Shown: positions 1-42,366 of the stretch, one piece after another | How the letters are laid out: each line of letters opens with the position of its first letter | Numbering within the stretch: position 1 is the first letter of the stretch | Source: a virus | Lineage: Duplodnaviria > Caudoviricetes | DNA length: 59,875 bases | Virus record (IMG/VR): IMGVR_UViG_3300023179_008242 | Span: 1-59,875 of that record | Direction: 5' to 3' (one strand) | Notes under the pieces: model-generated | Seen by the model: only the letters and a program-made list of their open reading frames with translations | Databases searched by the model: none | Told to the model about the DNA's origin: nothing | Translations under genes and position numbers: made by a program

Positions 1-103
1 CTGGGGGTGGCCCTCCTCCTGGTGGTCCTGGGGGTGGCCCTCCTCCTGGCGGCCCCGAGGGCGGTCCAGCTTCGTTTACGAGGAATTGGTGAAATGTGAG
101 CAT
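1..103 (-). CDS. Pro/Gly-rich protein, N-terminal part only (runs off window start)
   Basis: Manual translation from ATG at 103: MLTFHQFLVNEAGPPSGPPGGGPPPGPPGGGPPP. Shares the F-x-x-F/W-L-x-E N-terminus; ATACATA 5 nt upstream. Not in ORF track. Confidence 0.65.
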   Translation of the reverse strand, partial: MLTFHQFLVNEAGPPSGPPGGGPPPGPPGGGPPP

Positions 104-151
104 CGTTTTATGTATCCAGGGTGATAGATAAATTCAGCAAGGAGGTCGATC

Positions 152-328
152 ATGAAGGACATGGACGCCAGAGATCTCATAATCATTATTGCCACCCTAT
201 TTGTCCCGCCTCTCGGTGTGGCCGTCAAAATAGGATTCGGAGCGCAATTCTGGATCAATCTGATTTTGACTCTGCTCGGGCATATTCCGGGTGTGATTCA
301 CGGACTATGGGTTGTTCTAAAAGACTAG
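152..328 (+). CDS. YqaE/Pmp3 family (UPF0057) small membrane protein, 58 aa
   Basis: Manual translation MKDMDARDLIIIIATLFVPPLGVAVKIGFGAQFWINLILTLLGHIPGVIHGLWVVLKD with Pmp3 signatures PPLGV, FWINLILTLLG, PGVIH; GGAGG RBS at 141-145; below ORF-track length cutoff. Confidence 0.9.
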   Translation: MKDMDARDLIIIIATLFVPPLGVAVKIGFGAQFWINLILTLLGHIPGVIHGLWVVLKD

Positions 329-912
329 AAACGAAGTTGTGGTATCTTGGATAGAATGAGGTTCCAGTTGGAGCGAACCCATGCGTGGAATTCCGACTCT
401 GCCCTCTTCGGGCCATTTTCGTCGGTTTTTCCTAGGGTCTGGAATTCGATCTCATGTGTCGCCTCGTGGACTATGGTGCTTGCTATCTCGACGACCGCCT
501 GAGGCGTGTCGCCCAGTTCGGCTACTATCCTTCGAACGTTGACGTGTATGACGTCGCTGGGGGCGATCTGCCTCTCGTCGATGTCCGGTATATACTGCTT
601 TATGACTACGTTGGCGAGCCTCTGGGTGTTTACGTTCGTCAGGGCGTCCTGTCCGAACTTGAACTTGATCTTGTTTGCGGCGGCGGGGCCGATGACCTTC
701 TTGTTCTCGCCGGAATTGTACAGGCCGTAGACCCCGGAGGACAAAGGGGCAACCGTGCTGATGTTCTTTAGCAGGCCTTTGTTGGTGGCCTTGCTGTACA
801 TCTGGACGAGTTTGATGGCGTATTTGGCCTTGTCGTACAGAGCGTCTATCTGGCTGTTGACTTCGTCCGTACCCACGGTGTTGGCCTCTAGCCACTTTTT
901 GAATTCTGCCAT
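325..912 (-). CDS. Putative zinc metallopeptidase-like protein (HExxH), probable internal virion protein
   Basis: TIVHEATHE followed by a downstream Glu (AESE); N-terminus MAEFKKWLE. Confidence 0.6.
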   Translation of the reverse strand: MAEFKKWLEANTVGTDEVNSQIDALYDKAKYAIKLVQMYSKATNKGLLKNISTVAPLSSGVYGLYNSGENKKVIGPAAANKIKFKFGQDALTNVNTQRLANVVIKQYIPDIDERQIAPSDVIHVNVRRIVAELGDTPQAVVEIASTIVHEATHEIEFQTLGKTDENGPKRAESEFHAWVRSNWNLILSKIPQLRF

Positions 913-6524: not shown

Positions 6525-9500
6525 TCACGGGGCGCGGTTGCAATCGTCCTCTGACATGCCGAATGTGCCAAATCCATAGGGCGAGCACTCGCCGCCGATC
6601 TTCTCGAACCTTGTAAGGCACACTGATTCGCACTCGTCCTCGAGGTAGCCGTTCGTGCGGTGACCTATGAAGACACACCCTTCTTTTTCGTCGCATCCGT
6701 AACGAGGCAGGCAAGCGTCGGCCGTTCCCATGGCCTCACGCTTGTCTTTGTTTTCGAACCTGTATATGGGCGCGGCGCCAACATCGGAGTCGCACTTGTG
6801 GCCAACGGGGAAACATTGGTTGGTCACGTCGAATTCGGAAGTGCCGTTCACAGAATAGTATCCCGCAGGCCTTGGCCCGTGCATGTGGTCGCACTCCCAC
6901 ACCTGGACGCATTCGAAGCATTCGTGCGAGCCCTTTTTGCTCGGAAGCGGCCCCGCGAAGTGGTCGCATATGCACATTTCTCGACTGCCAGGATCGGACG
7001 GCACTCTCTTGAGCCTCAAGTCCGTGGAGCCGTCTTTTTTTGCGTACATCTGGAACACGTTTGGAGTTTTCCTGACCATCGGAGCGACGCACCCCCCGTC
7101 AGTGATCGTCCAGCCGTATGCGACTAGCGCGGCTCGGGCGGCCTCGGCAGCCGAGCCGCATGTGTACTTGCTGCCGCCGAAGTTCGGACTCAGGTCGGAC
7201 CTGTAGGCGGCCTTGGATGCGTTCCAGCCGACCAGCGTGGCGTCGTAGTTCGCGGTGGACAGACCCGTGGAGTCGCTCATGAATTCGTTGAGGCTAAAAC
7301 TTACGGAAAGGGACGAAAGGTTCCACGAGGCCATGTTGCAGTCGTAGGCGTCGGCGTCGAAGAACATCGCGCTCATGTTCAGAACAGAACCTGTGTCCCA
7401 TGAAGACAGGTCCGAGTTGAAGGACTGGCATTCGTAGAACATACCGGCCATGTTTGTTGCGGACGATGTGTTCCAAGAGGACAGGTCGGCATCGAACTGC
7501 TGGCACCCTCTGAACATGTTCTGCATGTTAGTCACGGAAGATACATCCCACATGGCGACCCTGTGGTCGTTGAAAGAGGCGCAAGAATGGAACATTTCGG
7601 AGCAGTTGGTGACCCCCGAAGGTAGTTGATCGGGAACTTCGGTCAGATTTATGCACCCTCTGAACGCCCGAAGCATGTTGGTTATTCCCAGGCTACCGAA
7701 TGAAAGACACCTTGTAAGTTTCAGCTTGTTGTTCTGTAGATGGTCGCCTGTTCCGTGATCCAGGCTGGTCATGGTTCCCGACACATGTACCGTGTAAACC
7801 CCCGGAGACGCGTAGGTGTGCGTCTTGAAGCCAGTTGTGGTGTAGTTGTTGAATGTCCCGTCGCCCCATTCCACCATGACGTCGACCGTTCCCGCAAGGG
7901 GCAAAGAAACAGTATTGTCGGATGGTTCGTTTGTTGTGTCGTAAACCAGCAACAGACCATAAGGATAACTTGAACTAGAACTTGAGCTGGAACTGGGGCT
8001 TAATTCGGAAATAGAAGACGATTCTTCGGTGCTAGATGATGCCTCTGTCGAACTGGACGAAGGCCCCGCCGTGCTGGAGGAAGCCTCTGTCGAACTAGAC
8101 GACGGTGCCGCTGTGCTGGAGGAAGCCTCTGTCGAACTGGACGAAGGCCCCGCCGTGCTGGAGGAAGCCTCTGTCGAACTGGAAGGCGGCGTGGCCGAAC
8201 TAGAAGACGAGGAGCCATCTGTGAATTCTATGGAACTTGACGATGAACTGCTTGGCGATGAACTGCTTGACGATTGAGGACAGGGCAACGACGGAGCGAC
8301 CCCGTTGTTCGGCGAGGGCTCAAATTCGCAGCTTTCTCCATTGAAGAAGAAGTACTTGACATCTTTGAGTACCGGGGATCCTTCCAAGCAAGTATCGCAC
8401 CATTCGTACTCCGCATAGAAGCCAAAACAAGACTGAACGACCCCTCCTCCTGTCTTCTTCGGCACCACATATCCGCATCGATCTTCAAATTCTGGAGCCG
8501 TGTTGTCGTCCGCTTGGTCGCAGCAGGTGGTGCTTGATGAGTCGCCTCCTCCGCCGCTGTCAGAGGACGAGCCTCCTCCCGTTCCCGAGCAGTCTCCCCA
8601 TATGAATTGCTGTTGCTGGTAGGAGCAGGCCGCCGGATTCCAGAAAGTCGACAAAATCAATCCGTACTGGGTTCCGTCTGGACATAGGAGCGGAACGGAG
8701 GAAGGGGGGAGCGGGGGCGGGTAGCACTGCTTGCACTGGCCTCCGAAGCAGGTCTGCTGGCCTTTGCACAAGGAGACGCACGAGGCTCCGTTGCACTGTT
8801 CGCACGGACCACAGGCGAAGGTGCAGGTGCCCGACACGCAAACCTCGCACGGACCGCAGGGCTTGGGGACGCATTCGTGGCCTCCATCTGTCGGAGAGCA
8901 CTGTTCGCAGGGGCTACAAAGGGGCACGCAATTCCCTGTTTCCGGGTCGCAGTTGAAGCAAGGGTCGCAGGTCTTGGTCGTCTTGCACTCCCCGCCCTCG
9001 CACGTCTGGCATTTGTTGCATGTTGTGGCACACTTGTTTTCTGGTCCGCCGCAGGTCTCGCATGGGCCGCATTGAACCGCAACGCACTCGTGGAAGACCC
9101 CGTCCGCCATGGAGCGAATCTCGTGCATCCTGTGGAGTTCGGAAAGCCTGTGGAGCGTGTCCGCGGAGCAGGTGGTTACCTCGCCTCCCAACGAAAAGAA
9201 TTTGGATGCCCCCACGGACAGGTCTTCCCACCTGTTGTTCCTTATCTCCGGTATGACGTCCAGGCTCTGGCCGTCCTTGAGCACGACTATGTTTCTTCTC
9301 TTCTCCGAGAAGTCTACCCCTGAAAAGGCGGACGCGTCGCCCGTCATCTCGGACATCGACGCCCGTAGCCTCTCCATGTTATCTGGTGATGTTCTGTAGA
9401 CGATGTCTATGTCGTTGAACGAGGACTGCATGCCGTGCATGTGTCGGGCGAAACTTCCTATGATCACATGCTCGACTCCGTGACTAGAAAGTATCCTCAT

Positions 9501-11375
9501 GGCCGACTCGTAGTCATGCGAGGGAGCCATGAAGGTTTGGCTCGGGACGCCTCCGTCGGGCGTGCAGACTTGGCACGGCGGGCAGTCGTTCTTGCAGGTT
9601 CCTCCCTCGCACTTCTGGCAACTGGCACAGGGCGGTTCGCACGGCGCGGGAGGGCAATCGCACGGAACCGTCTCGTATGTTTCGGTGCACTCTCCTTGTT
9701 GGCACACATATCGATTCACAGTGCGCTCGCACTCTCCTTCACCGAGCTCTCTGCATTCGCCCTCGTACGGCTCCGCGCACTCGTTGCCCTCTCCTTGGAT
9801 GCAACAGTCATCGCAAGGTTCGGTGGTTATGTCGCCTGTGCAGAATGGCTGGTTGTTCTCGTCCAGCGTGCAGGGATGGTTGAAGACCTCCCTGACGCAG
9901 AAATCTGGATCGCAGGGAAGGTAATCGGGGTCGGGACATTGGAATCCGGCACACCCGCAGTCGGCGTCGGCCCCGTCGAGACACGACGGTTCGTCATCGT
10001 ACGGGCCCGTCGTTCCCTCCTCGCACTTGGAGGCGCTGACGCAGTACCACTTGCCTCCGCCCGTGGAGGAACTAGACAACGGGTCGCATGGCTCCTCTTG
10101 GCACTTTCCGTCGCAGCAGTAGCCGGGATCAGGGCCCCAAGACGTAATGCACGGAGGCCGCTGCGGGGCGTTCGCGAACGCCCAAGCCGGGCGATCCTCT
10201 GGAGCGACGTTGGCCGGTACTCGAACTCTCTCGGGTGGCGGAGCTGGATCACAAGATAAGAACATATAGGTAAAGTAGAAGCAGTCACCGGCCGTCGTAC
10301 ACCCGCCGCTGGAACTAGAATTCCCACCCGCACAGGCTTCTGGATCGCATCCTACAGTTCGCTCGTCCGTTACGCACTCGCCCCCCAAGCATATGTATTC
10401 GGTCACCGTCTGGCGGCATTCTCCATCTTGGTCCAGCGCGCATTCGCTGTAAAGGGGATCTCCGCAGGCCTCCCTCTCGGGACAATCCGAGCCGGAGCTG
10501 CCCTGGGTCGACGATGAATTTTCTTCTGTGGGACTGCTAGATTTTCCGCAATTATTCGCACACTCTCCCACGGATTCATAACAAGTTCCCCCAAAATATT
10601 CGCAATATTTACGACCGCTTACATTCGAAACGCAAAAAGGTATAGGCCCCCCTCCAGCATAGCAACCTACTTTTATGCAATAGCTGCCAAGATTCCCACC
10701 GCTTTCACGCCACGCTTCATAACCTTCGACATCGTCAAAGGGAGAGATTTGTTCAGGATTGTCAATTACGGATTTTGCGCTTGTGCATGGTGATCCCCCA
10801 CAGCACGGGATAATGTTATCGTATTCAGGAGGCAGGTACTCGCATCGGGGCGGGCGGTATGGCAATCCTTCGCGATTTTCTTCTGGAAAACAGCAGTGAC
10901 ATCCTGTAGGGGGGTCGGGCGGAACAGAACTGGACGAACTGCTGGGGGGGTCGGGCGGACCAGAACTGGACGAACTGCTGGGGGGCGGGGGAATTCGGCA
11001 CCAGTATTCTCTGATTCCCGCAAATAATTCTTCTTCGGTCGGGGCGGGAAGTTCACTTGCCGGGACACACTCGCAATCGGTGCCTATGTAACAAAAATTT
11101 TGAAGCTCCTGCCAATCTGCTCCGGCTTCCGACAGGATGTAATAGCAAAAACTTCCATAGCAATAATCGGGTTCTCCTGTGCTGCTGCTTCCTGATGTAC
11201 TGCTGCTTGCACACTGTTCCGGGGGGTTGCAGGTGCCGTCGTAGCAGTATCCGCAAGGACAACATATGGGGTCTCCGAGCGGCGTGGTTCCAACCTGGCA
11301 CCACCCGTCGCCCTGAGGGCACGGCGGGGGCTTGTCCGTGAGGCTGAATAGGATTTCTGGTGTGGTTTTGTACAT
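6525..11375 (-). CDS. 1616-aa Cys-rich mosaic protein: Cys-rich modules, poly-Ser linkers, nucleotidyltransferase-like insert, PKD-like domain, BspA/DUF285-type repeats
   Basis: CxPCxxC repeats; IIGSFA..H...NDIDI NTase motif; VEWGDG..HTY.SPG.YTV (PKD-like); W(D/N)(T/V)SSVTNM..MF repeats (DUF285). Confidence 0.8.
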   Translation of the reverse strand: MYKTTPEILFSLTDKPPPCPQGDGWCQVGTTPLGDPICCPCGYCYDGTCNPPEQCASSSTSGSSSTGEPDYCYGSFCYYILSEAGADWQELQNFCYIGTDCECVPASELPAPTEEELFAGIREYWCRIPPPPSSSSSSGPPDPPSSSSSSVPPDPPTGCHCCFPEENREGLPYRPPRCEYLPPEYDNIIPCCGGSPCTSAKSVIDNPEQISPFDDVEGYEAWRESGGNLGSYCIKVGCYAGGGPIPFCVSNVSGRKYCEYFGGTCYESVGECANNCGKSSSPTEENSSSTQGSSGSDCPEREACGDPLYSECALDQDGECRQTVTEYICLGGECVTDERTVGCDPEACAGGNSSSSGGCTTAGDCFYFTYMFLSCDPAPPPERVRVPANVAPEDRPAWAFANAPQRPPCITSWGPDPGYCCDGKCQEEPCDPLSSSSTGGGKWYCVSASKCEEGTTGPYDDEPSCLDGADADCGCAGFQCPDPDYLPCDPDFCVREVFNHPCTLDENNQPFCTGDITTEPCDDCCIQGEGNECAEPYEGECRELGEGECERTVNRYVCQQGECTETYETVPCDCPPAPCEPPCASCQKCEGGTCKNDCPPCQVCTPDGGVPSQTFMAPSHDYESAMRILSSHGVEHVIIGSFARHMHGMQSSFNDIDIVYRTSPDNMERLRASMSEMTGDASAFSGVDFSEKRRNIVVLKDGQSLDVIPEIRNNRWEDLSVGASKFFSLGGEVTTCSADTLHRLSELHRMHEIRSMADGVFHECVAVQCGPCETCGGPENKCATTCNKCQTCEGGECKTTKTCDPCFNCDPETGNCVPLCSPCEQCSPTDGGHECVPKPCGPCEVCVSGTCTFACGPCEQCNGASCVSLCKGQQTCFGGQCKQCYPPPLPPSSVPLLCPDGTQYGLILSTFWNPAACSYQQQQFIWGDCSGTGGGSSSDSGGGGDSSSTTCCDQADDNTAPEFEDRCGYVVPKKTGGGVVQSCFGFYAEYEWCDTCLEGSPVLKDVKYFFFNGESCEFEPSPNNGVAPSLPCPQSSSSSSPSSSSSSSIEFTDGSSSSSSATPPSSSTEASSSTAGPSSSSTEASSSTAAPSSSSTEASSSTAGPSSSSTEASSSTEESSSISELSPSSSSSSSSSYPYGLLLVYDTTNEPSDNTVSLPLAGTVDVMVEWGDGTFNNYTTTGFKTHTYASPGVYTVHVSGTMTSLDHGTGDHLQNNKLKLTRCLSFGSLGITNMLRAFRGCINLTEVPDQLPSGVTNCSEMFHSCASFNDHRVAMWDVSSVTNMQNMFRGCQQFDADLSSWNTSSATNMAGMFYECQSFNSDLSSWDTGSVLNMSAMFFDADAYDCNMASWNLSSLSVSFSLNEFMSDSTGLSTANYDATLVGWNASKAAYRSDLSPNFGGSKYTCGSAAEAARAALVAYGWTITDGGCVAPMVRKTPNVFQMYAKKDGSTDLRLKRVPSDPGSREMCICDHFAGPLPSKKGSHECFECVQVWECDHMHGPRPAGYYSVNGTSEFDVTNQCFPVGHKCDSDVGAAPIYRFENKDKREAMGTADACLPRYGCDEKEGCVFIGHRTNGYLEDECESVCLTRFEKIGGECSPYGFGTFGMSEDDCNRAP
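8041..8183. repeat. 42-bp tandem repeat (~3.4 copies) encoding SSSTEASSSTA(G/A)PS
   Basis: gcctctgtcgaact recurs at 8041, 8083, 8125 and 8167. Confidence 0.9.
10911..10985. repeat. 36-bp tandem duplication encoding PPSSSSSS(G/V)PPD
   Basis: ggggtcgggcgga.cagaactggacgaactgctggg occurs twice in tandem. Confidence 0.8.
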
Positions 11376-14237: not shown

Positions 14238-15080
14238 CTTGAGAGCCTTCAGGTTGTCGGCGAGCGTCTCTCTAGCCTCGCCTTTTCGAGGCGGAAGGTA
14301 TGCCGTCCTGTCGGACATCCTGTTCGCAACCTCCAAAACGGACAAGTTCCTGCCCGACCCTATGTTGAAGACCGAACCGAAGCATTCATCGTCAATGTCG
14401 GACTCCGCCGCCAGTATGTTGGCTCGTGCGACGTCGTAGACGTGCGTGAAGTCCCTGCGCTGGAGCCCGTCGCCCACCACGGTGAGTGGCTGTCCGGCCT
14501 CGAGTTGCCTGCGGAATATGCCAATCACGGACGCATACTGTCCCTTCTGGGGCTCCCTGGGCCCGTAGACATTGAAGTACCTGAGCGTCAGGGTGCGCAG
14601 CCCGAAGGTCTTCCAGTACATCTCGCAGGCGATCTCCCCGGCCACCTTCGAGGCGGAGTAGGGGTTGAGGGGGTCGGGGCGCTGGTGCTCCCTGTATGGC
14701 ACAGGGTTGCCTCCGTAGGCCGAGCTCGTGGACGAATACACGAACCTCTTGGTTCCGTTGATCCTTGCGGACTCCAAGGCCACGGCCGTGCCGAGGGAGT
14801 TGGTGCGGAACGCCCTTACGGGATCCTCCATCGACAGGCCTATTCTAGAGGCCGCCGCGAGATGGAACACGAAATCGACGCCCGCGGAGAGCCTCTTCAT
14901 TGAATCTAGGTCGCACACGTCGACTTTGTGGTTTTCCGCTCCGCCGTTCCAGTGGTACCTGCCGTTGGACTCCGACGACTCGTTGTCCACGCACACGACC
15001 TCGTGGCCGACCCCGAGCAGGGCGTCGACGAGGTTCGACCCCACGAATCCTGCTCCCCCTGTTACTAGACTCCTGGGCAC
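14178..15080 (-). CDS. NAD-dependent epimerase/dehydratase (GalE-like extended SDR)
   Basis: VTGGAGFVGS, FHLAA, YSASK (YxxxK), RYFNVYGP, RDFTHV; GTG start with AGGAG RBS. Confidence 0.92.
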   Translation of the reverse strand: MPRSLVTGGAGFVGSNLVDALLGVGHEVVCVDNESSESNGRYHWNGGAENHKVDVCDLDSMKRLSAGVDFVFHLAAASRIGLSMEDPVRAFRTNSLGTAVALESARINGTKRFVYSSTSSAYGGNPVPYREHQRPDPLNPYSASKVAGEIACEMYWKTFGLRTLTLRYFNVYGPREPQKGQYASVIGIFRRQLEAGQPLTVVGDGLQRRDFTHVYDVARANILAAESDIDDECFGSVFNIGSGRNLSVLEVANRMSDRTAYLPPRKGEARETLADNLKALKSFGWSPSFRVEDYIDSVVD

Positions 15081-15772
15081 GCGTGGGTCTCCTGACGGAA
15101 TTCGTGCGGGAAGGATTCTCGGAAGAACCTTTCTATATCCGGCGTGGCGGCTGCCCTGTAGTACATTCTGTCGACTCCCAGATCGGACGGGTCGCGCACG
15201 AACTCCCGCACCCAGGGGGAAAGGGTCGCGTAGAAGCCGGAAAGCCTTCCGCTCCTGATCCATCGTACGACTTCGTCCTTGCGCGCTAGGAAGGACGATT
15301 GGTCGGTGAGTCCCGCCTCGCTCATCAATTCCATGGATGCCGAAATTTCCGCCCGGGCCTTCCTGTCGCTCGGGCGTATGGACATGTCCGAGGGGGACCG
15401 CGGACGAGCCATGATCTTGTCGCGCCTGCTCTTCCAGAGTTTCCACCTGCGCCAAGCCTTCTCCCCCACGAGGCAGTGGGGCTCTATGAGGGCGTGGACG
15501 TTGCCGTCGTTGATCGACTTGAGCATCTGTATCTGCGCCTGCACGTACATCGGGATTTCCTTGTCCGCGATTATCCCGGCCATCTCCTTGGCCAGTTTGT
15601 AGCAGTACTTGAAAAGGAGGCACCTTCTCGGGTCGGCCCCCGTCTTGAGCCTCGCGTAGGGCTCGTTCGGAATCTCCCTACGGCATTCGTCCTGCCAAAC
15701 AAGTGCTATTTTGTAGGCCTTCGCCTCGATTGGATCCATCCTGTAGCCTATGATTGGCTCGAGTTCTCTCAT
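15065..15772 (-). CDS. Hypothetical protein
   Basis: ORF starting MRELEPIIGY; no recognisable motif. Confidence 0.65.
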   Translation of the reverse strand: MRELEPIIGYRMDPIEAKAYKIALVWQDECRREIPNEPYARLKTGADPRRCLLFKYCYKLAKEMAGIIADKEIPMYVQAQIQMLKSINDGNVHALIEPHCLVGEKAWRRWKLWKSRRDKIMARPRSPSDMSIRPSDRKARAEISASMELMSEAGLTDQSSFLARKDEVVRWIRSGRLSGFYATLSPWVREFVRDPSDLGVDRMYYRAAATPDIERFFRESFPHEFRQETHACPGV

Positions 15773-15782
15773 GATTCTGCTA

Positions 15783-15811
15783 TTGCCCCTCCCGATAGAT
15801 CTAGTTATGTT
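15783..15811 (+). promoter_or_regulatory. Sigma70-like promoter for the candidate ncRNA/PolA unit
   Basis: TTGCCC-17 nt-TATGTT. Confidence 0.5.
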
Positions 15812-15817
15812 GTGTGG

Positions 15818-16215
15818 CGAACAAAACCTGCAATAACCTATAACGAACAGCAAAAACTTTCAACCCGAACTAGATTCGAATGGAGAACACTGTCGAGTCC
15901 GCGTTCGAGAGATCGCGGAGCCACGGGGATTATACTTCCCTGGTCCCTAAGCCTTTGCGTTGAAACTCGCATAGCCAATGACGGAGGAGGCTGAGTCGCC
16001 TGTAGAAAAACCTTTTGGCGCGGAGGAATCCGTGCTTTTCCGTGTAACCCGACGCTAGTCGATGCGTCGTGGGCCTGGGTCACGGTCCGAAATGGGTACG
16101 AATCAAAAGGTTGTAATAATACAGGCAGAGGGGTTCGGGCAATCGTCGTGTTAGCGGAACTCGGTGTACAAACGAAGGGAGAGGCACAAGGCCATATAAC
16201 TTGTGTCTCTTTTAT
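15818..16215 (+). ncRNA. Candidate large structured ncRNA (~400 nt), family unknown
   Basis: Nested long-range helices 15864-70/16133-39, 15998-16004/16120-26 and 16009-17/16104-12; local hairpins with GAGA and GAAA loops; possible pseudoknot; closing 14-bp hairpin 16177-16213; wobble pairs are G-U on the + strand. Confidence 0.6.
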
Positions 16216-16292
16216 AGGGGTACCCGGAGGGAAGGCCCATTCTCTAGACTGAAACATAGGCACATCTTCTTATTTTATGAAAGGACGATTAA

Positions 16293-16508
16293 TTGAGTAG
16301 CAAGAAAAAAACAAGAAGGCACATCAGGAGGATGGCAGAGAGGAAGGGCATCGGCTATAGGGAGGCAATATGCCGCTTCTACGACTCCGACTTGGAGTCC
16401 ATCAACAAGAGCCTTGTCTATTCGCTTCACAAGAACACAAGAGCCGGACGGATTTTAATATCGCCACTCATCGGGTATGATCGCGGCAACAATGTCAGAG
16501 ATGTCTGA
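16293..16508 (+). CDS. Small basic hypothetical protein
   Basis: TTG start after AAGGA; MSSKKKTRRHIRRM; overlaps the start of the PolA gene. Confidence 0.45.
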   Translation: MSSKKKTRRHIRRMAERKGIGYREAICRFYDSDLESINKSLVYSLHKNTRAGRILISPLIGYDRGNNVRDV

Positions 16509-17784
16509 AGTCATGCCCCGGTTCAGGGGACATGACATTTATTTTTACATGCACGGATCCGGCTCTTCGCTCGGCGACGAGCTGCGGTTCTACTACGGAG
16601 GCGGTAGGGCCGTAGTTCCGTGCTCGGACTCGGTGTCGATTAGCGTCCTCGCGTCCTCGATCCAGCATTTCGTGGACGCCGACCGCCTTCTAATCGCGTG
16701 GTCTGCGAAGGACATCTTCTCGTTCGTGAAGTCGCGCACGGAGATGTCCATGGAGGTCGGGAGCGTGCTCTACGACCTCTCGGTCATCTCCTCCTACCTT
16801 TCGGTTGAGTGCGAGGTTCCGACCTCGTTCTCCTCGGCCGTGAGGCTCTTGAAGCGGCTTCTGGGGCACCCGGGCTGGCCTGCCTTCAAGCCTTTCTACT
16901 TCGAGGTCTACATGCCCCTCGTTACCTCCGTGCTCCCCGAAATGGAGACCTGCTGCCTTGTGGACAACTCCAAGCGCATGTGCGTCTACCCTTCCTACGT
17001 CGTCGAGGGTCAGGCCAACGGGCGCCTGAAGGCTGTCGTGCCGTCGGAGGCCCACTACAACCCTCACTCGCTCGGGAGGGAGCAGAGGGCCAGTCTGAGG
17101 CCGGCGGGCTACGACGAGGTGTTCGTCTACTTCGACTACAAGAACATGGAGGTGAATGTCCTCCAGTGGCTTTCGGGCGACCCGAACCTCGGGGCGATAC
17201 TGGCGTCCGGGGAAGACCCGTACAGGTCGATATGGTCGCGTGTGATACGCGGAGAGGCAACCGAGTCCCAGAGGCGCATCTGCAAGGACATCTTCCTGCC
17301 CGTGGTTTTTGGCCAGGGTTCGCGCTCGCTGGCGGAGCGGGCCGGCATCAAGGAAGAAATTGCTTCCAGAATCATAGATACGCTGGTTGATGCCTTTCCT
17401 GTCGCCTTTGACTGGGTAACCTCCCAGTCGCCCGACGGCGACAAAATGGCCGTGGACTTCTTCGGGAGGCGGCGCCGCTTCGAGGGCCGAGAGCTCTACA
17501 AGACGCGCAACTTCTCCGTCCAGTCCCCTGCCAGCATGATATGCCTTCGGAAGCTCGTACGACTCCACCGCTCCTTGTCGGGGCTGGCGCGTACATGCTT
17601 CCATGTTCACGACGGATACTGCGTTGTATGCGACAAGAACAAGGTCGACGAGGTTTTCGAGGTCGGCACCTCGGTGCTCGAGGAGGAGGACGCTATGTTC
17701 CCCGGACTCAAGCTGAAGACCTCGTGCGTCCACGGCCCCTGCCTAGAAGAAACCAAACCCACCAGAAAAGGAGCATTAGCATGA
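16477..17784 (+). CDS. Short family-A DNA polymerase-like protein lacking the thumb subdomain
   Basis: GQANGRL (TGRL-like), motif A FDYKNMEV, motif B RRICKDIFLPVVFGQG, NFSVQSPAS, motif C HVHDG. Confidence 0.8.
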   Translation: MIAATMSEMSEVMPRFRGHDIYFYMHGSGSSLGDELRFYYGGGRAVVPCSDSVSISVLASSIQHFVDADRLLIAWSAKDIFSFVKSRTEMSMEVGSVLYDLSVISSYLSVECEVPTSFSSAVRLLKRLLGHPGWPAFKPFYFEVYMPLVTSVLPEMETCCLVDNSKRMCVYPSYVVEGQANGRLKAVVPSEAHYNPHSLGREQRASLRPAGYDEVFVYFDYKNMEVNVLQWLSGDPNLGAILASGEDPYRSIWSRVIRGEATESQRRICKDIFLPVVFGQGSRSLAERAGIKEEIASRIIDTLVDAFPVAFDWVTSQSPDGDKMAVDFFGRRRRFEGRELYKTRNFSVQSPASMICLRKLVRLHRSLSGLARTCFHVHDGYCVVCDKNKVDEVFEVGTSVLEEEDAMFPGLKLKTSCVHGPCLEETKPTRKGALA

Positions 17785-18341
17785 AACACATCCACGACTC
17801 ATTCCCGGTCACCGAGGAGGAGTACGCCATCCTCGACGACAAGTTCGGCGAGCTCTGCGAGTACCAGGCCTGGCAGCTCATCAAGAAGAACACGAGGAAC
17901 AACCACACGGACAGCCAGGAGGACATAGCCCAGGACATGAGGATCGCGCTGCTGCGAGCCGCGTCGTACTACAAGCGCCAGTGCTACATCGAGGACTGCC
18001 TGGATCTTTGCAAGAAGCAAGCCAAGGACGAGGTCATCAAGTCGGTCGTCCGCCAGCTCGCCGGCCTGTGGAAGAACAAGACCCGCCACGGGGCCAACAA
18101 GCAGAAGTTCGGCCCGCACCAGGAGAAGATGCTCGACAAGCTCGTGAGGAGCCTCGTGCCGCAGAAGCAGAGGCCGAACCGTCGAGCCCCGCTTCGCATG
18201 GACGCCAAGTTCATCACTTACTGCAAGGCGATCACGTGGAACGCCCAGAAGTCGCTTGGCAAGAAGATCACGCGGGAGAAGGGCATCAGGACGGGCATGG
18301 TGTCGCTTTCGGAGTACGACTACCTGGGCGGCAAGGACTGA
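17781..18341 (+). CDS. Putative sigma70 region-2-like factor (gp55-style)
   Basis: EDIAQDMRIALLRAASYY resembles region 2.2; KFITYCKAITWN resembles region 2.3/2.4; no region 4; ATGA coupling with PolA. Confidence 0.5.
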   Translation: MKHIHDSFPVTEEEYAILDDKFGELCEYQAWQLIKKNTRNNHTDSQEDIAQDMRIALLRAASYYKRQCYIEDCLDLCKKQAKDEVIKSVVRQLAGLWKNKTRHGANKQKFGPHQEKMLDKLVRSLVPQKQRPNRRAPLRMDAKFITYCKAITWNAQKSLGKKITREKGIRTGMVSLSEYDYLGGKD

Positions 18342-18344
18342 CCT

Positions 18345-18623
18345 TCAGTCCCAGTGCTCCGTTCCCGACTCGTCGAACCAGTGGAGAACCCATCCCATGG
18401 TCGAGTAATACATCCTGTCGACGCCTATCTTCCCCTCATGCACCTTTCGGTGGCAGTTGGCACAGCACGTTACCACGTTGAGCGGGACGTACTCGCCTCC
18501 CTTCTCCCCCGGCAGAATCCTGTGCACGTCGAGGACGCAGTAGTTGTCCTCGCCGCAGAACTTGCACTTCCCGTCCGACTTCTTCTTGGCGGCCTTGTCG
18601 ACCAGTTTCTTCTTCCTTGGCAC
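18345..18623 (-). CDS. HNH endonuclease
   Basis: CKFCG...LDVHRI.PG..GG.Y...NVVTCCANCHRKVH. Confidence 0.85.
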   Translation of the reverse strand: MPRKKKLVDKAAKKKSDGKCKFCGEDNYCVLDVHRILPGEKGGEYVPLNVVTCCANCHRKVHEGKIGVDRMYYSTMGWVLHWFDESGTEHWD

Positions 18624-18734: not shown

Positions 18735-20339
18735 TTGAACAGCATGCAGGAAGAAGACGGCGGACTCACGGATGCCGAGATCGCGGAGCTCGAGGGCCTC
18801 ACGAACCCTGACTCCAAGAAGCAGGAGCGGTACCGATGGGACGAGGACTTCCAGCGCACCGTGGTCGGGCTCCTGCTCAACGACCGCTGGTTTGTCAACC
18901 AGTGCCGCGACCTCGTCCTCCCCTCCTACTTCGCTGACGAGCGCCACCAGACGCTCTGTCGCATCCTCTTCGACTACATGGACCAGTACAAGTCCATACC
19001 GCCCAAGACCGTAGTGATTCAGGAGGTCAAGAACCAGACCTCGAACAGGGATCCGGCGATGCAGGCGGAGTACCTCTCCGAGGCCGAGATTGTCTACAAG
19101 AAGTTCGTGCCGGGCCTCGAGACGAGGGAGTACCTGCTCGGCAAGATCGTCAACTTCGCGAAGCTGATGAGCCTCAAGGCCGCCTTCGACAAGTCGATCG
19201 TCATGGTGAAGCGGGACCCGGAGGGCGAGAAGACCTGGAACTCCATACGCGAGGAGCTCCAGAAGGCCCTCATCGTCGAGAGGAACTTCGAGCCCGGCCT
19301 CAACTACTTCGAGACCTTCGAGGAACGCTACGCTAGGATGGCGAACGAGGAGGCCGCCCGCGAGAGGTTCACCAGCGGTTTCGAGATGATCGACGACGCC
19401 CTCCTCGGGGGCGGGTGCCACCGCGGCGAGATATACTCGTGGATAGGGCTCAGCGGCAGCGGCAAGAGCCTCGCCCTCGTCGGCGCTGCCCTCAAGAACG
19501 TCACGCAGCTGGGGAAGAAGGTGCTGTACATCTCCCTTGAGATGGGCGAGGACGCCATAGCGGAGAGGTTCGACGCCCAGATGGCCGACGTCGACATCAA
19601 CAAGCTCCAGGACATGAAGGATCGGGTCAAGTCCGCCTTCGAGGAATTCTCGAGGGACAAGCAGGACAAAAGGATGCTCGTCATCAAGCAGTTCCCCGCT
19701 GGCTCGATGAGCGTGGCCTCGCTCCGCGCCTACATGCAGCAGCTACAGATGGTGGGCTTCGTCCCCGACCTGCTCGTTATAGACTACATCGGCGAGATGA
19801 AGGACTTCCCCGGCATGCCCACCTGGGAGTCGCGCTACAGGATAGTCAGGGACCTCCGCGGCCTCGCCACCGAGGATAATATCTGCATATTCACAGCCAT
19901 GCAGCCGAACAAGGACGCCCGCTCGGCCCAGAATAAGAACTCCACACTCGGCGACGGCGTGATCGACGACACGAACCTTGCCGACTCCTATGGACAGATC
20001 AGACCCCTCGACGGCTGCTGGAGCATCAACCAGATGCAGGCCGAGAAGGAGGCGGGCATCGCGAGGATATTCGTCATCAAGCACCGCCACGGCAAGAGCA
20101 GGTTCACGTGCTGGGCCCAGTTCGACAGGAAGACGCTGCAGATAAGGCAGATCAGCGAGAACAGGTACAACGAAATCTGGAAGGAATACTCTTTCAATAA
20201 GACCGAGCGCGCCTCTGACATGGACAACCAAGTGAAGAGCATAGTCGGAAAGGGTAAGATCAAGGGCTTCTCGTCGGACTCGGGGTACGACGACCCCGAC
20301 CAGCCCGACGAGCGTCCTCCACTGGAAGAAAGGAACTGA
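18735..20339 (+). CDS. Replicative DnaB/gp41-like helicase
   Basis: Walker A GLSGSGKS, YISLEM, LLVIDY, TAMQ, ADS, KHRHG. Confidence 0.9.
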   Translation: MNSMQEEDGGLTDAEIAELEGLTNPDSKKQERYRWDEDFQRTVVGLLLNDRWFVNQCRDLVLPSYFADERHQTLCRILFDYMDQYKSIPPKTVVIQEVKNQTSNRDPAMQAEYLSEAEIVYKKFVPGLETREYLLGKIVNFAKLMSLKAAFDKSIVMVKRDPEGEKTWNSIREELQKALIVERNFEPGLNYFETFEERYARMANEEAARERFTSGFEMIDDALLGGGCHRGEIYSWIGLSGSGKSLALVGAALKNVTQLGKKVLYISLEMGEDAIAERFDAQMADVDINKLQDMKDRVKSAFEEFSRDKQDKRMLVIKQFPAGSMSVASLRAYMQQLQMVGFVPDLLVIDYIGEMKDFPGMPTWESRYRIVRDLRGLATEDNICIFTAMQPNKDARSAQNKNSTLGDGVIDDTNLADSYGQIRPLDGCWSINQMQAEKEAGIARIFVIKHRHGKSRFTCWAQFDRKTLQIRQISENRYNEIWKEYSFNKTERASDMDNQVKSIVGKGKIKGFSSDSGYDDPDQPDERPPLEERN

Positions 20340-20340
20340 A

Positions 20341-20862
20341 ATGGAAGTATCCGACCTCATACCCAAGGCGGACATTGACCGTCTGTCGCCTCACGCCCAG
20401 ACCGTCATCAAGCTCGGGGGGCAGGAGGTTGTGCTGGACAACTCGAGGCTGTCGTTCAACGAGACCAGCCTCAACGCCTTCATGGAAAACCTGGCCCTGT
20501 GGTACGACTACTTCAGCCAGAAGCTCGCCGAGGCGGAGGCCATAATGGCCTACAAGGAGTACGAGTACGACGTGCTCTTCTCCGCCTCCTACGAAAGGAG
20601 CAAGGAGAGCGGGTGCACGGACAAGCTGGCGGAGGCCAACGCCAAGAAGGACCCCAACGTGTGCGATGCCAAGAAGGAGATCATCGGCGCCAAGCACAAG
20701 GTCACGCTCCTCAAGCAACACCTCAAGGCCTGGGACAAGGCGCACGAGAACGCCATGAGCCGCGGCCACATGGTACGCAAGGAGATGGACAAGCTAAACA
20801 CGGACATCGTGTTCAGGAACAAGGACGACCGCGTGGGTGAGATCGTGGGCCGCGGCCAATGA
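20341..20862 (+). CDS. UvsY-like recombination mediator (coiled coil)
   Basis: Helical protein of matching size with a TDK.AEA...DP pattern; located in the helicase/SSB/RecA cluster. Confidence 0.5.
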   Translation: MEVSDLIPKADIDRLSPHAQTVIKLGGQEVVLDNSRLSFNETSLNAFMENLALWYDYFSQKLAEAEAIMAYKEYEYDVLFSASYERSKESGCTDKLAEANAKKDPNVCDAKKEIIGAKHKVTLLKQHLKAWDKAHENAMSRGHMVRKEMDKLNTDIVFRNKDDRVGEIVGRGQ

Positions 20863-23796: not shown

Positions 23797-24732
23797 ATGG
23801 GACTTGATCTTGGATCACTTCAGAACGACTATAAGACGCTCAAGGCGGCTGAGGGCGGCGGTGGGTCTTTCCTTGAGAACTTTGTGAGGATGCCGGAGGG
23901 CAAGGGAAGCGTTGTGATGCGCCTCCTCCCGCCAGCCCCCAAGGGCGCCTTCGGCAGGGATGATAACCCCTTCTACCTCGTCACCGCCCTCCACAGGGTG
24001 AACGGCAAGAGCCTGCACGACATACGGGACTATGTTAATGGCAAGTGGGTCGGACGCAATCCGATCTGCGAGTACATGCGGCACCTCTGGAAGGAAAGCG
24101 AGCAGGCTGCGCCCGCGGAGGCAGAGCAGAAGAGGAACCTCTATCGGCAGATCAAGCCGATCGAGAGGTACTACTACAACGTCATCGTCCGCGAGGAGCG
24201 GTCGGAGGACGGCACGGTCAAGAAGAACGTCGGCCCGAAGATTCTCTCCGTGGGCAAGACCGTCCACGAGATCATCTTGAGGGGCATCCTCGGCGACAAG
24301 GAGATGAACCAGGACAGGCTCGGCGACGTGACCGACTTCAAGGCCGGCTACGACTTCAAGCTCGTCAAGACCATCCGCAAGTCGGGCGACCAGAGTTTCC
24401 CGAACTACGAGAGCTCGCACTTCCTTGATCAGAGCCCCGCCGGCGACCCCGACGAGTGCAAGCGGTGGATGGAGAACCTCCACGACCTCAAGGCCCTCAG
24501 GATTCTGAAGACCTACGAGGAGTTGGAGCACGAGCTCCTCGTCCATCTCGGCCTCAAGCAGGAGACCGAGGGAGGCTTCGATCCCACGAAGTACGTCGGC
24601 CGCTCCGCTGCCGCCGAAACGAAGGCTCCCGTCGCGCCGGCCCCGGTCGCCGCCGCGGTCGCCCACGAGTCGGACTCTGACGATTCCGACGCCGACGAGG
24701 ACTTCCTCGAGGAGCTCAGGAAGCTCGGCTGA
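23797..24732 (+). CDS. T4 gp32-like single-stranded DNA-binding protein
   Basis: MRLLP, NPICE, RYYYNV, GPKILSVGK, GYDFKL, FPNYESS; acidic tail DSDDSDADEDFLEEL. Confidence 0.85.
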   Translation: MGLDLGSLQNDYKTLKAAEGGGGSFLENFVRMPEGKGSVVMRLLPPAPKGAFGRDDNPFYLVTALHRVNGKSLHDIRDYVNGKWVGRNPICEYMRHLWKESEQAAPAEAEQKRNLYRQIKPIERYYYNVIVREERSEDGTVKKNVGPKILSVGKTVHEIILRGILGDKEMNQDRLGDVTDFKAGYDFKLVKTIRKSGDQSFPNYESSHFLDQSPAGDPDECKRWMENLHDLKALRILKTYEELEHELLVHLGLKQETEGGFDPTKYVGRSAAAETKAPVAPAPVAAAVAHESDSDDSDADEDFLEELRKLG

Positions 24733-24820: not shown

Positions 24821-26011
24821 ATGGCCAAGGCCAAGAAGAACGAGGATGCGATTCTGGACGAGATACTCTCGTCCACTGGCGGCGAGACCCTGCGCAACGC
24901 GGGCATAGTTCCTTACTATGTCAACACCGGCAACCTCGCCATCAACTACGCCTGCAGCGGAAAGTTCGTCAAGGGAGGCTTTCCGGGCGGACGCATCATC
25001 GAGGCCTTCGGCCCGGAGGCCTCGGGCAAGTCGTTCCTCGGCTACTGTTTCCTGGGAGCAATCCAGAATCAGGGCGGCATAGCGGTTCTCCTTGATTGCG
25101 AGAGGTCCAGCGGCAGCGAGTTCGCGGAGAGGTGTGGGCATGTGAACCCGGACAAGCTCATCGTGTACAGCCCGGTCACCCTCCAGCAGGTCGAGAAGCA
25201 GATAATCTCTGTGGTGAGGGCGATAAGGTCGAAGTTCCCCGACAAGCCGATCGGCATAGTCTGGGACAGCATCGGCGTGAACCCCACGGAGCGCGAGTTC
25301 AGCGAGGTCGAGCTCCCCGACAACCCCACCAAGGCCCAGATCGACGCGGTCGGCCAGGAGCGCCCCGGCGAGCGGGCCAAGTTCGCGAACAAGATTCTGA
25401 GGAGTCTGAACCCGTTCCTCAACGACAACGACGCCACCCTGTACGTCATCAACCAGGTGCGCAAGAAGATCGGCGTTATCTACGGAAACGACGAGACGAC
25501 CAGCGGAGGAGGCGAGGCCCTCAAGTTCTACGCCTCCCTCAGGTTCAGGACCGGCGCCCCCAAGTCGTTCCAGGACAAGGACACGAAGCTGTCCCTCGGG
25601 GTCAACATGACGATTGCCAACAAGAAGAATCGTCACTTCACCCCGGGCATAAAGGTCGAGAACGTCCCTCTCTTCTTCGATTCCGGCATCAACCCTCTCG
25701 GCGGCCTGCTTGACGCCCTCCTTATGGCGAAGCGGGTGGAGCCCGCGAAGGGGGCTGGCAAGTATGCGGTGCTCGCTCCTTGGAACGGCGGCGACGATGG
25801 GGCAACATTCCAACAGGCGAAGTCCGCTCCGTTCGACTCTTCCATACTCATGAAGTATCCGGCGCTCGTCGACGCAGAGAGCCCGGAGGAGGTGTCCGAA
25901 TATCTCAAGGAGTGGTCGGCGGCGATAGCGCTCACCAACAGCGACAGCGTGGAGCAGATCGACACCCACCAGGATGTCGGGCACCTTATCGGCTCGAAGG
26001 ACGAGGACTGA
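24821..26011 (+). CDS. recA: RecA/UvsX-like recombinase
   Basis: GRIIEAFGPEASGKS, VWDS, INQVR, TTSGGGEALKFYASLR, KNR. Confidence 0.92.
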   Translation: MAKAKKNEDAILDEILSSTGGETLRNAGIVPYYVNTGNLAINYACSGKFVKGGFPGGRIIEAFGPEASGKSFLGYCFLGAIQNQGGIAVLLDCERSSGSEFAERCGHVNPDKLIVYSPVTLQQVEKQIISVVRAIRSKFPDKPIGIVWDSIGVNPTEREFSEVELPDNPTKAQIDAVGQERPGERAKFANKILRSLNPFLNDNDATLYVINQVRKKIGVIYGNDETTSGGGEALKFYASLRFRTGAPKSFQDKDTKLSLGVNMTIANKKNRHFTPGIKVENVPLFFDSGINPLGGLLDALLMAKRVEPAKGAGKYAVLAPWNGGDDGATFQQAKSAPFDSSILMKYPALVDAESPEEVSEYLKEWSAAIALTNSDSVEQIDTHQDVGHLIGSKDED

Positions 26012-40275: not shown

Positions 40276-42354
<2,079 letters not shown>

Positions 42355-42366
42355 AGGGAGACTTCC

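Follow-up and report, generated by a model that had tools for sequence, protein, structure and literature searches.

A huge-phage lineage of family-A DNA polymerases with an excised thumb, encoded at the head of a replication and recombination module

Phage family-A DNA polymerases (PolAs) that have a truncated or absent thumb, lack an active exonuclease and are encoded beside a regular polymerase have been described as divPolA1 and divPolA2 (Yutin et al., 2024; PMC11348598). According to that study, divPolA1 of Immutovirus-like phages has a truncated thumb and an inactivated exonuclease, is additional to a regular polymerase and stands first in a cluster of genes for replication and recombination (SSB, RecA, and DnaB). 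In the same study, divPolA2 of barbaviruses combines a PolA palm without a homologous thumb with an unrelated N-terminal globular domain, has no exonuclease domain, lies beside a regular polymerase in a variable neighbourhood and is proposed to be non-replicative (PMC11348598). [quoted passage not shown] Among virioplankton, the Leu762 groups of PolA carry Leu at the position of Pol I F762 and have superfamily I/II helicases as neighbours, and the word 'thumb' occurs 0 times in the text of that study (PMC6302109). According to the same text, Leu at this position is common in phage PolAs and makes them slower but more accurate. In the portions of the literature covered (including PMC10201439, PMC7162821, and PMC6302109, main text as distinct from supplementary tables), we found no description of a thumbless PolA family of huge phages. 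Truncated-thumb phage PolAs are already published (PMC11348598), and what is new here is a separate lineage in which the thumb has been excised.

This lineage is represented by a polA gene in a 59,875-nucleotide stretch of viral DNA (IMG/VR record IMGVR_UViG_3300023179_008242, a viral record 12% complete), which we refer to as the window. The gene and the parts of its product (window PolA) are as follows:

16477..17784, plus strand: thumbless family-A DNA polymerase gene (polA), 435 aa, ORF confirmed.
16477..16875, plus strand: residues 1-133, vestigial 3'-5' exonuclease-like domain in which no catalytic acids are conserved.
16966..16980, plus strand: residues 164-168, NSKRM hairpin turn in place of the Pol I thumb (residues 549-653, 105 residues).
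17122..17154, plus strand: residues 216-226, motif A (FVYFDYKNMEV) with D220 and steric-gate E225, invariant in 28/28 aligned members.
17272..17313, plus strand: residues 266-279, motif B/O-helix with R266, K270, F273-L274-P275-V276, and F278-G279, 28/28.
17602..17619, plus strand: residues 376-381, motif C (HVHDGY) with catalytic D379 and Gly for Pol I E883, 28/28.

Window PolA has a Klenow-like fold and is a member of family A by homology. It matches the PF00476 profile above the curated cut-off (85.2 bits against 34.3, E 5.6e-24), and the match pairs its residues 164-420 with profile positions 101-376 of 381 only. Some homologues begin at the residue aligned with M6 of the window protein. 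The AlphaFold2 model is confident (mean pLDDT 90.2, pTM 0.90), and VIA-align placed 392 of its 435 residues (2..428) on residues 295..832 of KlenTaq (3lwm_A, a 538-residue chain) with Z 32.9 and an rmsd of 2.8. Foldseek likewise returned KlenTaq and Bst entries (E 6e-20, query-normalised TM 0.72-0.81). The fold is therefore the one common to the bacterial Pol I large fragments (Klenow, KlenTaq, Bst), at 21-22% sequence identity to KlenTaq. The missing thumb together with the motif pattern described below is far beyond chance.

Several observations locate the deletion. On E. coli Pol I, profile positions 3-380 of PF00476 correspond to residues 551-925, so that the first 100 profile positions, which find no match in window PolA, are the thumb. 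At the residue level, D163-NSKRM-C169 of the window protein corresponds to D548-(105 residues)-R654 of E. coli Pol I; the MAFFT alignment with E. coli Klenow behind this comparison is valid from Pol I R654/window C169 onward, its N-terminal half being misaligned, and window 'YMPLV...LVD' was matched to Pol I 'EMPLV...KID' by eye rather than by MAFFT. In the model, a helix (134-156) is followed by two strands (161-163 and 168-172) that form a tight beta-hairpin with no helix between them. The five-residue link is free of insertions in all 28 aligned family members. The polymerase part has approximately the length of that of Pol I minus the thumb, with no compensating internal insertion, and palm and fingers are kept, leaving one of the three canonical right-hand subdomains missing. 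We found no separately encoded thumb: the sole extra PF00476 match in five large related records scored 16.9 bits, contained three stops and occurred in one record. An earlier note, made from the letters of this DNA, had claimed that the whole thumb is missing and replaced by about five residues; profile gap, alignment and AlphaFold hairpin all confirm this, and the model, when compared with Klenow-type structures, has no intact thumb.

To assess the catalytic residues, we compared the 28 rows of the family alignment (alignment A1) with Pol I, whose numbering serves as reference. Both catalytic aspartates are kept (D220 = D705 in motif A and D379 = D882 in motif C), as are the steric-gate Glu (E225 = E710), the dNTP-binding residues of the O-helix (R266 = R754 and K270 = K758) and, within the minor-groove Arg/Asn/Gln set shared with the Pol I large fragment, N345 (= N845) and Q349 (= Q849); each of these numbered residues is identical in 28 of 28 rows. 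Equally invariant are the departures from Pol I. In motif B, L274, P275, F278, and G279 stand at F762, G763, Y766, and G767, so that the aromatic pair F762/Y766 of Pol I is Leu/Phe in the window family, and in motif C H378-D379-G380 replaces H881-D882-E883. The altered motifs B and C with retained aspartates that the earlier note had read from one sequence are thus a property of the whole alignment. With Gly replacing the motif C Glu in every one of the 28 rows, the enzyme may work more slowly or differently. F278, for its part, cannot hydrogen-bond a 2'-OH. The 5'-3' exonuclease (FEN) domains of Pol I (PF02739 and PF01367) are absent from window PolA. Its N-terminal domain can be superposed on KlenTaq's vestigial exonuclease domain (from residue 295), which is of similar size; PF01612, which matches E. 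coli Pol I, does not match window PolA, and by eye no Exo I/II/III acidic pattern is conserved in alignment A1. The earlier note had likewise seen no exonuclease acidic motifs in the N-terminal part. Just three columns within residues 1-133 are invariant (D100, S106, and P115), and the invariant or near-invariant residues include W75, K78, Y99, D100, S106, and Y107.

The family is large and maintained. It comprises at least 213 clusters at 50% identity (E<=1e-30), and nearly all of the 150 representatives listed have about 400-450 residues; among 90% clusters there are 179 matches at E<=1e-3, and of the 120 listed nearly all measure about 390-450 aa. All 28 aligned members, which reach down to 38% identity, have intact frames of constant length, as do nearly all of the 150 representatives. 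Estimates of dN/dS were 0.23 (window versus L002), 0.12 (L003 versus L007) and 0.12-0.17 for three further, more divergent pairs. The family comes from viral records; of 185,579 species genomes scanned, just one has a member.

Judged by sequence and compared with one presumed member, the window family is a lineage separate from divPolA1. The member in question, from phage immuto_3-5A, is presumed from the genome list and the described context and is of similar size (441 aa). Against window PolA it gave a BLASTP E of 11 and an hhalign probability of 0.27% for alignment A1, and the A1 profile left it unmatched at E<=10 while matching the regular PolA of the same phage (16.6 bits). Both polymerases are additional to a regular one (for window PolA this is DnaE, in relatives), but the thumb of divPolA1 is truncated where that of window PolA is excised, the neighbours of divPolA1 come in another order and are unrelated to those in the window, and its hosts have genomes of 155-190 kb. 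divPolA2 is set apart by its published description, as given above. Compared with CCPol, window PolA shows the reverse combination, with the thumb missing and an exonuclease-like domain kept, and its neighbour is helical and sigma-like. It shares Leu at the F762 position with the Leu762 groups, but those are described with superfamily I/II helicases as neighbours, and the window family adjoins DnaB.

We next consider the gene neighbourhood, for which 56 related loci were compared (counts for gp32 and UvsX are limited by the 10-kb flank):

15065..15853, minus strand: divergently oriented conserved ORF, 48/56 loci.
15950..16170, plus strand: structured non-coding element upstream of polA, blastn matches in 7/56 loci.
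16293..16508, plus strand: small basic ORF, 71 aa, overlapping the polA start, 11/56 loci.
17781..18341, plus strand: sigma-like gene, 186 aa, with a conserved C-terminal tail, directly after polA in 55/56 loci.
18735..20339, plus strand: DnaB-like replicative helicase (PF03796, phrog_19), downstream of polA in 54/56 loci.
20341..20862, plus strand: conserved helical ORF after DnaB, 173 aa (orf173), 51/56 loci.
23797..24732, plus strand: gp32-like ssDNA-binding protein (PF08804, phrog_1192), 30/56 loci within the flank.
24821..26011, plus strand: UvsX/RecA-like recombinase (PF00154, phrog_97), 28/56 loci within the flank.

The order is fixed: polA is followed by the sigma-like gene and DnaB, with gp32 and UvsX frequently further on. 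The ATG of the sigma-like gene overlaps the polA stop (ATGA), both in the window and in the closest loci, a tight coupling for which a pure repair role offers no explanation. The sigma-like protein is all-helical and looks like sigma region 2, unlike a DNA clamp. Six of 25 members (alignment A2) have a weak Sigma70_r2 match, and in a VIA-wide search its model matched many sigma domain-2 structures (Z 7.2-7.6), tied with designed helical bundles, so that 'sigma-like' remains a moderate lead; Foldseek of the model against the PDB gave no match at E<=0.001, and the A2 profile found chance-level matches only among PDB sequences (E >=0.6). Complex prediction for PolA (A1) and the sigma-like protein (A2) scored 0.00 in two runs without controls, which speaks neither for nor against a complex. 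Co-occurrence with polA, which the earlier note had raised for three neighbours, proved to be nearly constant for the sigma-like gene and was detectable in only a minority of loci for the other two: the small basic ORF is open and conserved (E<=1e-3) in the 11 loci listed, and the upstream RNA is detectable by blastn in seven. For the latter, RNAalifold on six sequences gave 38 pairs, 15 of them with compensatory changes, and no Rfam family was found near polA (best RAGATH-25, sub-threshold at 20.2 bits against 49). The divergent ORF matches no Pfam or PHROG family, and its homologues begin at a residue that aligns with M28 (near position 15772). At the thresholds used, no Pfam or PHROG family was found for orf262, the small ORF, the sigma-like gene, orf173, orf220, or orf241; for orf173, the sole pointer to UvsY is an ESM Atlas lead (12% of one cluster, rank 6), with Pfam support absent.

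Related records indicate which enzyme most likely copies these genomes. A DnaE-type family-C polymerase (PF07733) was found in all five related records that are at least 50% complete and in 7 of 12 further ones, including the 595-kb LR756511 (12/17 in total); the five records in which it was not found are all 18-44% complete. The window's own record, 12% complete, likewise yielded none, so the co-occurrence of DnaE with window PolA is inferred from relatives. Among five large related records, neither a family-B polymerase (0/5) nor a second full PolA was found. A DnaG-like primase, with the DnaG Zn ribbon and Toprim_2 in a single ORF (332-347 aa), occurs in 5 of 9 related records, among them LR756511 and a 511-kb record that is 100% complete by CheckV. 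In the same nine records, a DnaQ-like exonuclease (PF00929) occurs in three, FEN (PF02739) in none, so that the usual partner of Pol I-type primer replacement is not evident, and the Pfam clamp families PF02768 and PF09116 in none, although divergent forms of FEN or clamp can escape detection. The interpretation given in the earlier note therefore holds in part: its view that window PolA is unlikely to be a processive replicase, for which it had suggested looking for another replicative polymerase, is supported by the DnaE context, and specialised priming is weakened by the DnaG-like primase.

Losing the thumb while keeping the catalytic core suggests that the thumbless PolA is probably a short-patch helper and not the main copying enzyme of the phage. 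We propose, with a probability of roughly 0.55, that it is an accessory, distributive DNA polymerase making short patches at the replication fork or on recombination intermediates. The product is predicted to be a DNA-dependent DNA polymerase with a working active site and a dead exonuclease, in essence a Klenow/KlenTaq-type large fragment minus the thumb, in which the five-residue turn joins the two palm strands that otherwise flank the thumb. It retains the pair of catalytic aspartates, the O-helix Arg and Lys for triphosphate binding, the Glu of the steric gate against ribonucleotides and the Arg/Asn/Gln trio for reading the minor groove at the primer end. What it lacks is the subdomain that serves to wrap around duplex DNA upstream of the primer terminus. 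Without that subdomain, DNA binding is expected to be weak and distributive, suited to short patches. The gene belongs to a conserved operon-like replication and recombination module of huge phages (sigma-like gene, DnaB, helical ORF, gp32, and UvsX), and bulk synthesis in the related genomes would most likely be performed by the phage DnaE (often split), primed by the DnaG-like primase. Window PolA may then fill gaps after primer removal, or carry out the first extension of 3' ends (RNA primers and invading strands) before handing off to DnaE, or both. Enzymatic activity, low processivity and in vivo role are in each case predicted from sequence and model.

In the Klenow fragment, loss of no more than the thumb tip is enough to cripple both DNA binding and processivity. 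Here this canonical subdomain is cleanly gone from an old and large family that purifying selection maintains, leaving a natural minimal palm-plus-fingers PolA in which every catalytic and primer-end-reading residue is kept. Together with divPolA1 and divPolA2, the family suggests that large phages with a separate replicase repeatedly evolved thumb-reduced PolAs among SSB, recombinase and helicase genes, which points to a recurring task, either at the fork or within recombination-dependent replication. The open duplex-binding cleft could make the enzyme a tool, for instance for bulky or modified templates. Because window PolA is small and confidently predicted, its activity, processivity, and partner dependence are directly testable.

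The strongest competitor to an accessory short-patch role, although we consider it rather unlikely, is that window PolA is a polymerase of the core replisome or of recombination-dependent replication that becomes processive with a partner gripping the duplex in trans. The polA gene invariably heads the replication module and, in the window and closest loci, overlaps the next start, its 'dead' N-terminal domain keeps invariant or near-invariant residues that suggest a retained surface function, nothing has been inserted into PolA to compensate for the thumb, and a precedent exists in the PhiKZ polymerase with its Rhc processivity subunit (PMC13648687). The candidates for such a grip are the sigma-like protein, the small basic protein, a clamp, a UvsX/gp32 filament or the upstream RNA. 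However, the first resembles sigma region 2 and not a clamp, the small basic ORF and, by blastn, the RNA are each found in a minority of loci, and Pfam clamp families are absent from all nine records, though divergent ones may evade detection. Doubtful as well is a bolder form, in which the thumbless PolA would be an obligate subunit and a dedicated initiator of recombination-dependent replication linked to late transcription. The duplex would then be held by the sigma-like protein with its C-terminal tail, an undetected clamp, the UvsX/gp32 filament or RNA, and the open cleft would give access to 3' ends buried in D-loops or primer hybrids; if so, replication would be physically tied to late transcription in huge phages.

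Other readings change the activity itself. A PolA fold kept as a non-catalytic scaffold for protein or DNA binding would fit the loss of thumb, exonuclease and motif C Glu and the altered motif B, but metal-, dNTP- and primer-end residues that stay invariant down to 38% identity are hard to explain without catalysis, which makes this improbable. The order polymerase, small protein, helicase recalls the CCPol-MP-Cch2 operon (PMC7581432; PMC10061031) and with it a primase that initiates de novo on a PolA core; this is very unlikely, given the DnaG-like primase of related phages, the opposite domain losses of CCPol (PMC7581432) and the predicted OB fold of MP (PMC10061031) against an all-helical neighbour in the window. 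We give equally little credence to an RNA polymerase or transcription-coupled enzyme acting with the sigma-like protein. Its translational coupling to the sigma-like gene and a motif C without Glu would fit. T7-type RNA polymerases are likewise not known to carry this Glu. A similar role was put forward as possible for divPolA2 (PMC11348598). Against it stand the invariant steric-gate E225, Phe at the Tyr766 position and the structural matches, the best of which are DNA polymerases (Z 31-33) with no RNA polymerase among the 50 listed. Finally, nothing beyond the missing parts speaks for a decaying polA remnant, and the pseudogene-like decay that the earlier note had set up as the alternative is refuted by intact, constant-length frames and dN/dS values of 0.12-0.23, leaving it a negligible chance.

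In the window, PolA, a family-A DNA polymerase by Pfam (PF00476, E 5.6e-24, 85.2 bits) and a member of DNA polymerase families in PHROGs, lacks the thumb. Its gene lies in a replication module, and the window has the following features.

Features of the window (coordinates, strand, description)
6525-11375, minus strand: ORF of 1616 aa with a DUF285 domain, just upstream of the replication module
15950-16170, plus strand: conserved, structured non-coding element upstream of polA, in the intergenic region ~15773-16292
16293-16508, plus strand: small basic ORF, 71 aa, whose end lies within the start of polA
16477-17784, plus strand: thumbless polA gene, ORF of 435 residues
17781-18341, plus strand: sigma-like gene, 186 aa, next after polA
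18345-18623, minus strand: HNH endonuclease gene, between the sigma-like gene and DnaB
20341-20862, plus strand: helical ORF, 173 aa, directly 3' of DnaB
40276-46406, plus strand: phage-encoded PrkA/DUF444/SpoVR gene triad

The PF00476 match covers only profile positions 101-376 of 381, from residue 164 on, and alignments with the closest solved relatives by sequence (Taq, Klenow, Bst, Pol theta, and Pol nu) begin at about residue 161-218. Because E. coli Pol I fills profile positions 3-380 (residues 551-925), the first ~100 positions unmatched in the window represent the thumb. Alignment with translated E. coli polA pairs C169-V170...Y174...G182-R183 with R654-V655...Y659...G667-R668 of Pol I, and the Pol I stretch EMPLV...GVKID, which stops at D548, has a look-alike (YMPLV...CCLVD) that stops at D163, a pairing read by eye from the printed sequences (MAFFT placed the N-terminal part wrongly). 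Five residues (NSKRM) therefore stand in place of 105 in Pol I. In an AlphaFold2 model built from 28 relatives (pLDDT 90.2, pTM 0.90), a helix (134-156) leads into a beta-hairpin whose strands (161-163 and 168-172) have no further element between them. Residues 2..428 of the model superpose on 295..832 of the KlenTaq chain (392 residues, rmsd 2.8, Z 32.9), consistent with Foldseek (query-normalised TM 0.72-0.81), and this comparison revealed no insertion that compensates for the lost thumb. Since the whole model superposes on KlenTaq, residues 1-133 are predicted to form a vestigial exonuclease-like domain as large as that of KlenTaq, the remainder being palm and fingers. Profile coverage, alignment, and model thus bear out the missing thumb reported in the earlier note.

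That note described motifs A, B, and C exactly, as the residues concerned are identical in all 28 aligned members: D220 (Pol I D705) and E225 (E710, the steric gate) in motif A; R266 (R754), K270 (K758), L274 (F762), P275 (G763), F278 (Y766), and G279 in motif B; and H378-D379-G380 (H881-D882-E883) in motif C. R183 (R668), N345 (N845), and Q349 (Q849) are equally invariant. Leucine at position 762 is described as common in phage PolAs in the available text of PMC6302109. The earlier note had also seen no exonuclease acidic motifs in the N-terminal part, and indeed we found no conserved exonuclease motif in residues 1-133 among the 28 members, where the only invariant columns are D100, S106, and P115.

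A word-based search returned 179 clusters matching PolA at E<=1e-3, of which the best 120 are nearly all ~390-450 residues long, with identity down to 38%; an exhaustive search gave 213 representatives at E<=1e-30, with a few shorter fragments or longer forms among the matches listed. The dN/dS of polA is 0.23 and 0.12 for the two pairs whose dS is unsaturated; three pairs of greater divergence give 0.12-0.17. The constant length of the family and these ratios (0.12-0.23) rule out a decaying remnant, and judged by sequence the gene is live. Sequence comparison and model together mark PolA as a genuine, conserved enzyme of an unusual kind, with predicted activity. The family is viral: it occurs at 56 loci in IMG/VR and in one phage-collection record (LR756511, 595 kb), some relatives among the matches listed sit on 260-360 kb contigs, and just 1 of 185,579 species genomes has a member, on a 271-kb contig (L088). 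That contig comes from a metagenome-assembled genome and may belong to a huge phage binned together with a bacterium.

Gene order is constant across the 56 loci. A divergent ORF lies upstream of polA in 48, and downstream follow the sigma-like gene (55/56), DnaB (54/56), the 173-aa helical ORF (51/56) and then, as far as the 10-kb flank extends, two ORFs without assigned function, gp32 (30/56), and UvsX (28/56). In the window and its nearest relatives, the sigma-like gene starts with an ATG that overlaps the stop codon of polA; in distant relatives a few bases separate the two genes. The sigma-like protein is better conserved than the polymerase (43-95% versus 30-80% identity) and has an all-helical model with a nearly invariant, disordered acidic/aromatic C-terminal tail. 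Weak Sigma70_r2 matches occur in 6 of 25 members, and the model finds many sigma domain-2 structures at Z 7.2-7.6, equal with designed bundles. The protein may resemble the small sigma factor that T4-type phages use for late transcription, and its tail may be akin to the clamp-binding tails of T4 late-transcription proteins. The HNH gene, present in 10/56 loci at variable distance, shows a pattern typical of a mobile homing endonuclease. The helical ORF has a weak ESM Atlas lead to UvsY, from 12% of one cluster, and no Pfam support for it. Other window genes encode DnaB helicase, a gp32-like SSB, a UvsX-like recombinase, helicases, and a cytosine methylase.

The window is an entire viral record, 12% complete by CheckV, so that the full genome should measure several hundred kb; DnaE was not found in it, as expected for such a fragment and no evidence of absence. 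The search for another replicative polymerase succeeded in its relatives. In five large related records (one of 511 kb and 100% complete, the others 50-69%), the thumbless enzyme is the one full PolA, family-B polymerases were not found (0/5), and a DnaE-type polymerase is present in all five, split into two ORFs (~450-480 and ~820-930 aa) a few kb apart. DnaE was also detected in 7 of 12 further records, one of which, LR756511, has it as an unsplit 1183-aa frame; the other five are 18-44% complete. The split and unsplit forms were seen across the records behind loci L051, L027, L022, L034, L015, and L075. A DnaG-like primase occurs in 5 of 9 related records.

Given this DnaE replicase and primase, and the helicase/SSB/recombinase block, we propose, with a probability of roughly 0.55, that PolA is an accessory short-patch polymerase of the replication/recombination module. 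The residues kept are those required to add dNTPs on a template and to check the primer-terminal base pairs, and both the steric-gate Glu and the Phe that replaces Tyr766 argue for dNTP use. The part lost is the one that wraps around the duplex on the upstream side of the primer end. For a Pol I-type enzyme, such a loss predicts weak, distributive binding. The earlier note's interpretation is partly supported: its view that PolA is unlikely to be a processive replicase fits this context, and its priming role is made less likely by the DnaG-like gene. That gene and an architecture opposite to CCPol-MP, the PolA primase of SCCmec elements, make a comparable primase unlikely here, and E225 and F278 make an RNA polymerase unlikely.

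The main rival, in which PolA works in the replisome or at D-loops and owes its hold on DNA to a trans-acting partner, is less likely. Of the companions surveyed at the suggestion of the earlier note, the sigma-like gene accompanies polA almost throughout, and the two candidate partners are weak as general ones. The small basic ORF is open and conserved in 11/56 loci, all in the family's closer half; it shares an Arg/Lys-rich N-terminal motif with its homologues and matches no Pfam or PHROG family. The upstream element has blastn matches in 7/56 loci, and its core is 76-82% identical between loci whose PolAs are only 52-56% identical. RNAalifold on six sequences gave 38 pairs, 15 with compensatory changes, and one hairpin has four different stem sequences among the six; G-U pairs favour the plus strand, the single-sequence fold z-score is -2.6, and no Rfam family matches. 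Possible identities are a 5' leader, a small RNA, or a segment of an origin.

A comparable phage protein is divPolA1, reported in the available text of PMC11348598 (Yutin and co-workers) to have a truncated thumb and a dead exonuclease, to accompany a regular polymerase, and to be encoded ahead of replication genes; divPolA2 is described there as without a homologous thumb. In phage immuto_3-5A, one of the divPolA1 genomes of that paper, we found that the first gene encodes a 441-aa PolA; two small ORFs come next, then SSB, RecA, a 5'-3' exonuclease, and DnaB, and a regular PolA (778-aa open frame) is also present. This 441-aa PolA, the one presumed divPolA1 member compared, showed no specific similarity to the present family by BLASTP, hhalign, or the profile of the 28-member alignment, and its small neighbours are unrelated to those of the window's polA. 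The family described here is therefore of the same kind as divPolA1 but forms its own, far larger lineage; its thumb is more cleanly excised, its phages exceed the others in size several times over, and they have DnaE as regular polymerase. The available text of a 2023 PolA reclassification describes 'broken' thumbs and thumb insertions and no thumbless subfamily (PMC10201439), and in that of a huge-phage paper polA appears only as a marker gene (PMC7162821). Our literature searches yielded no description of the family; supplementary tables might list it.

Elsewhere in the window, the DUF285 ORF is grouped with genes for a glycosyltransferase, a trypsin-like protease, and an NAD-dependent epimerase, and an intein carrying a LAGLIDADG domain interrupts the SpoVR homologue.
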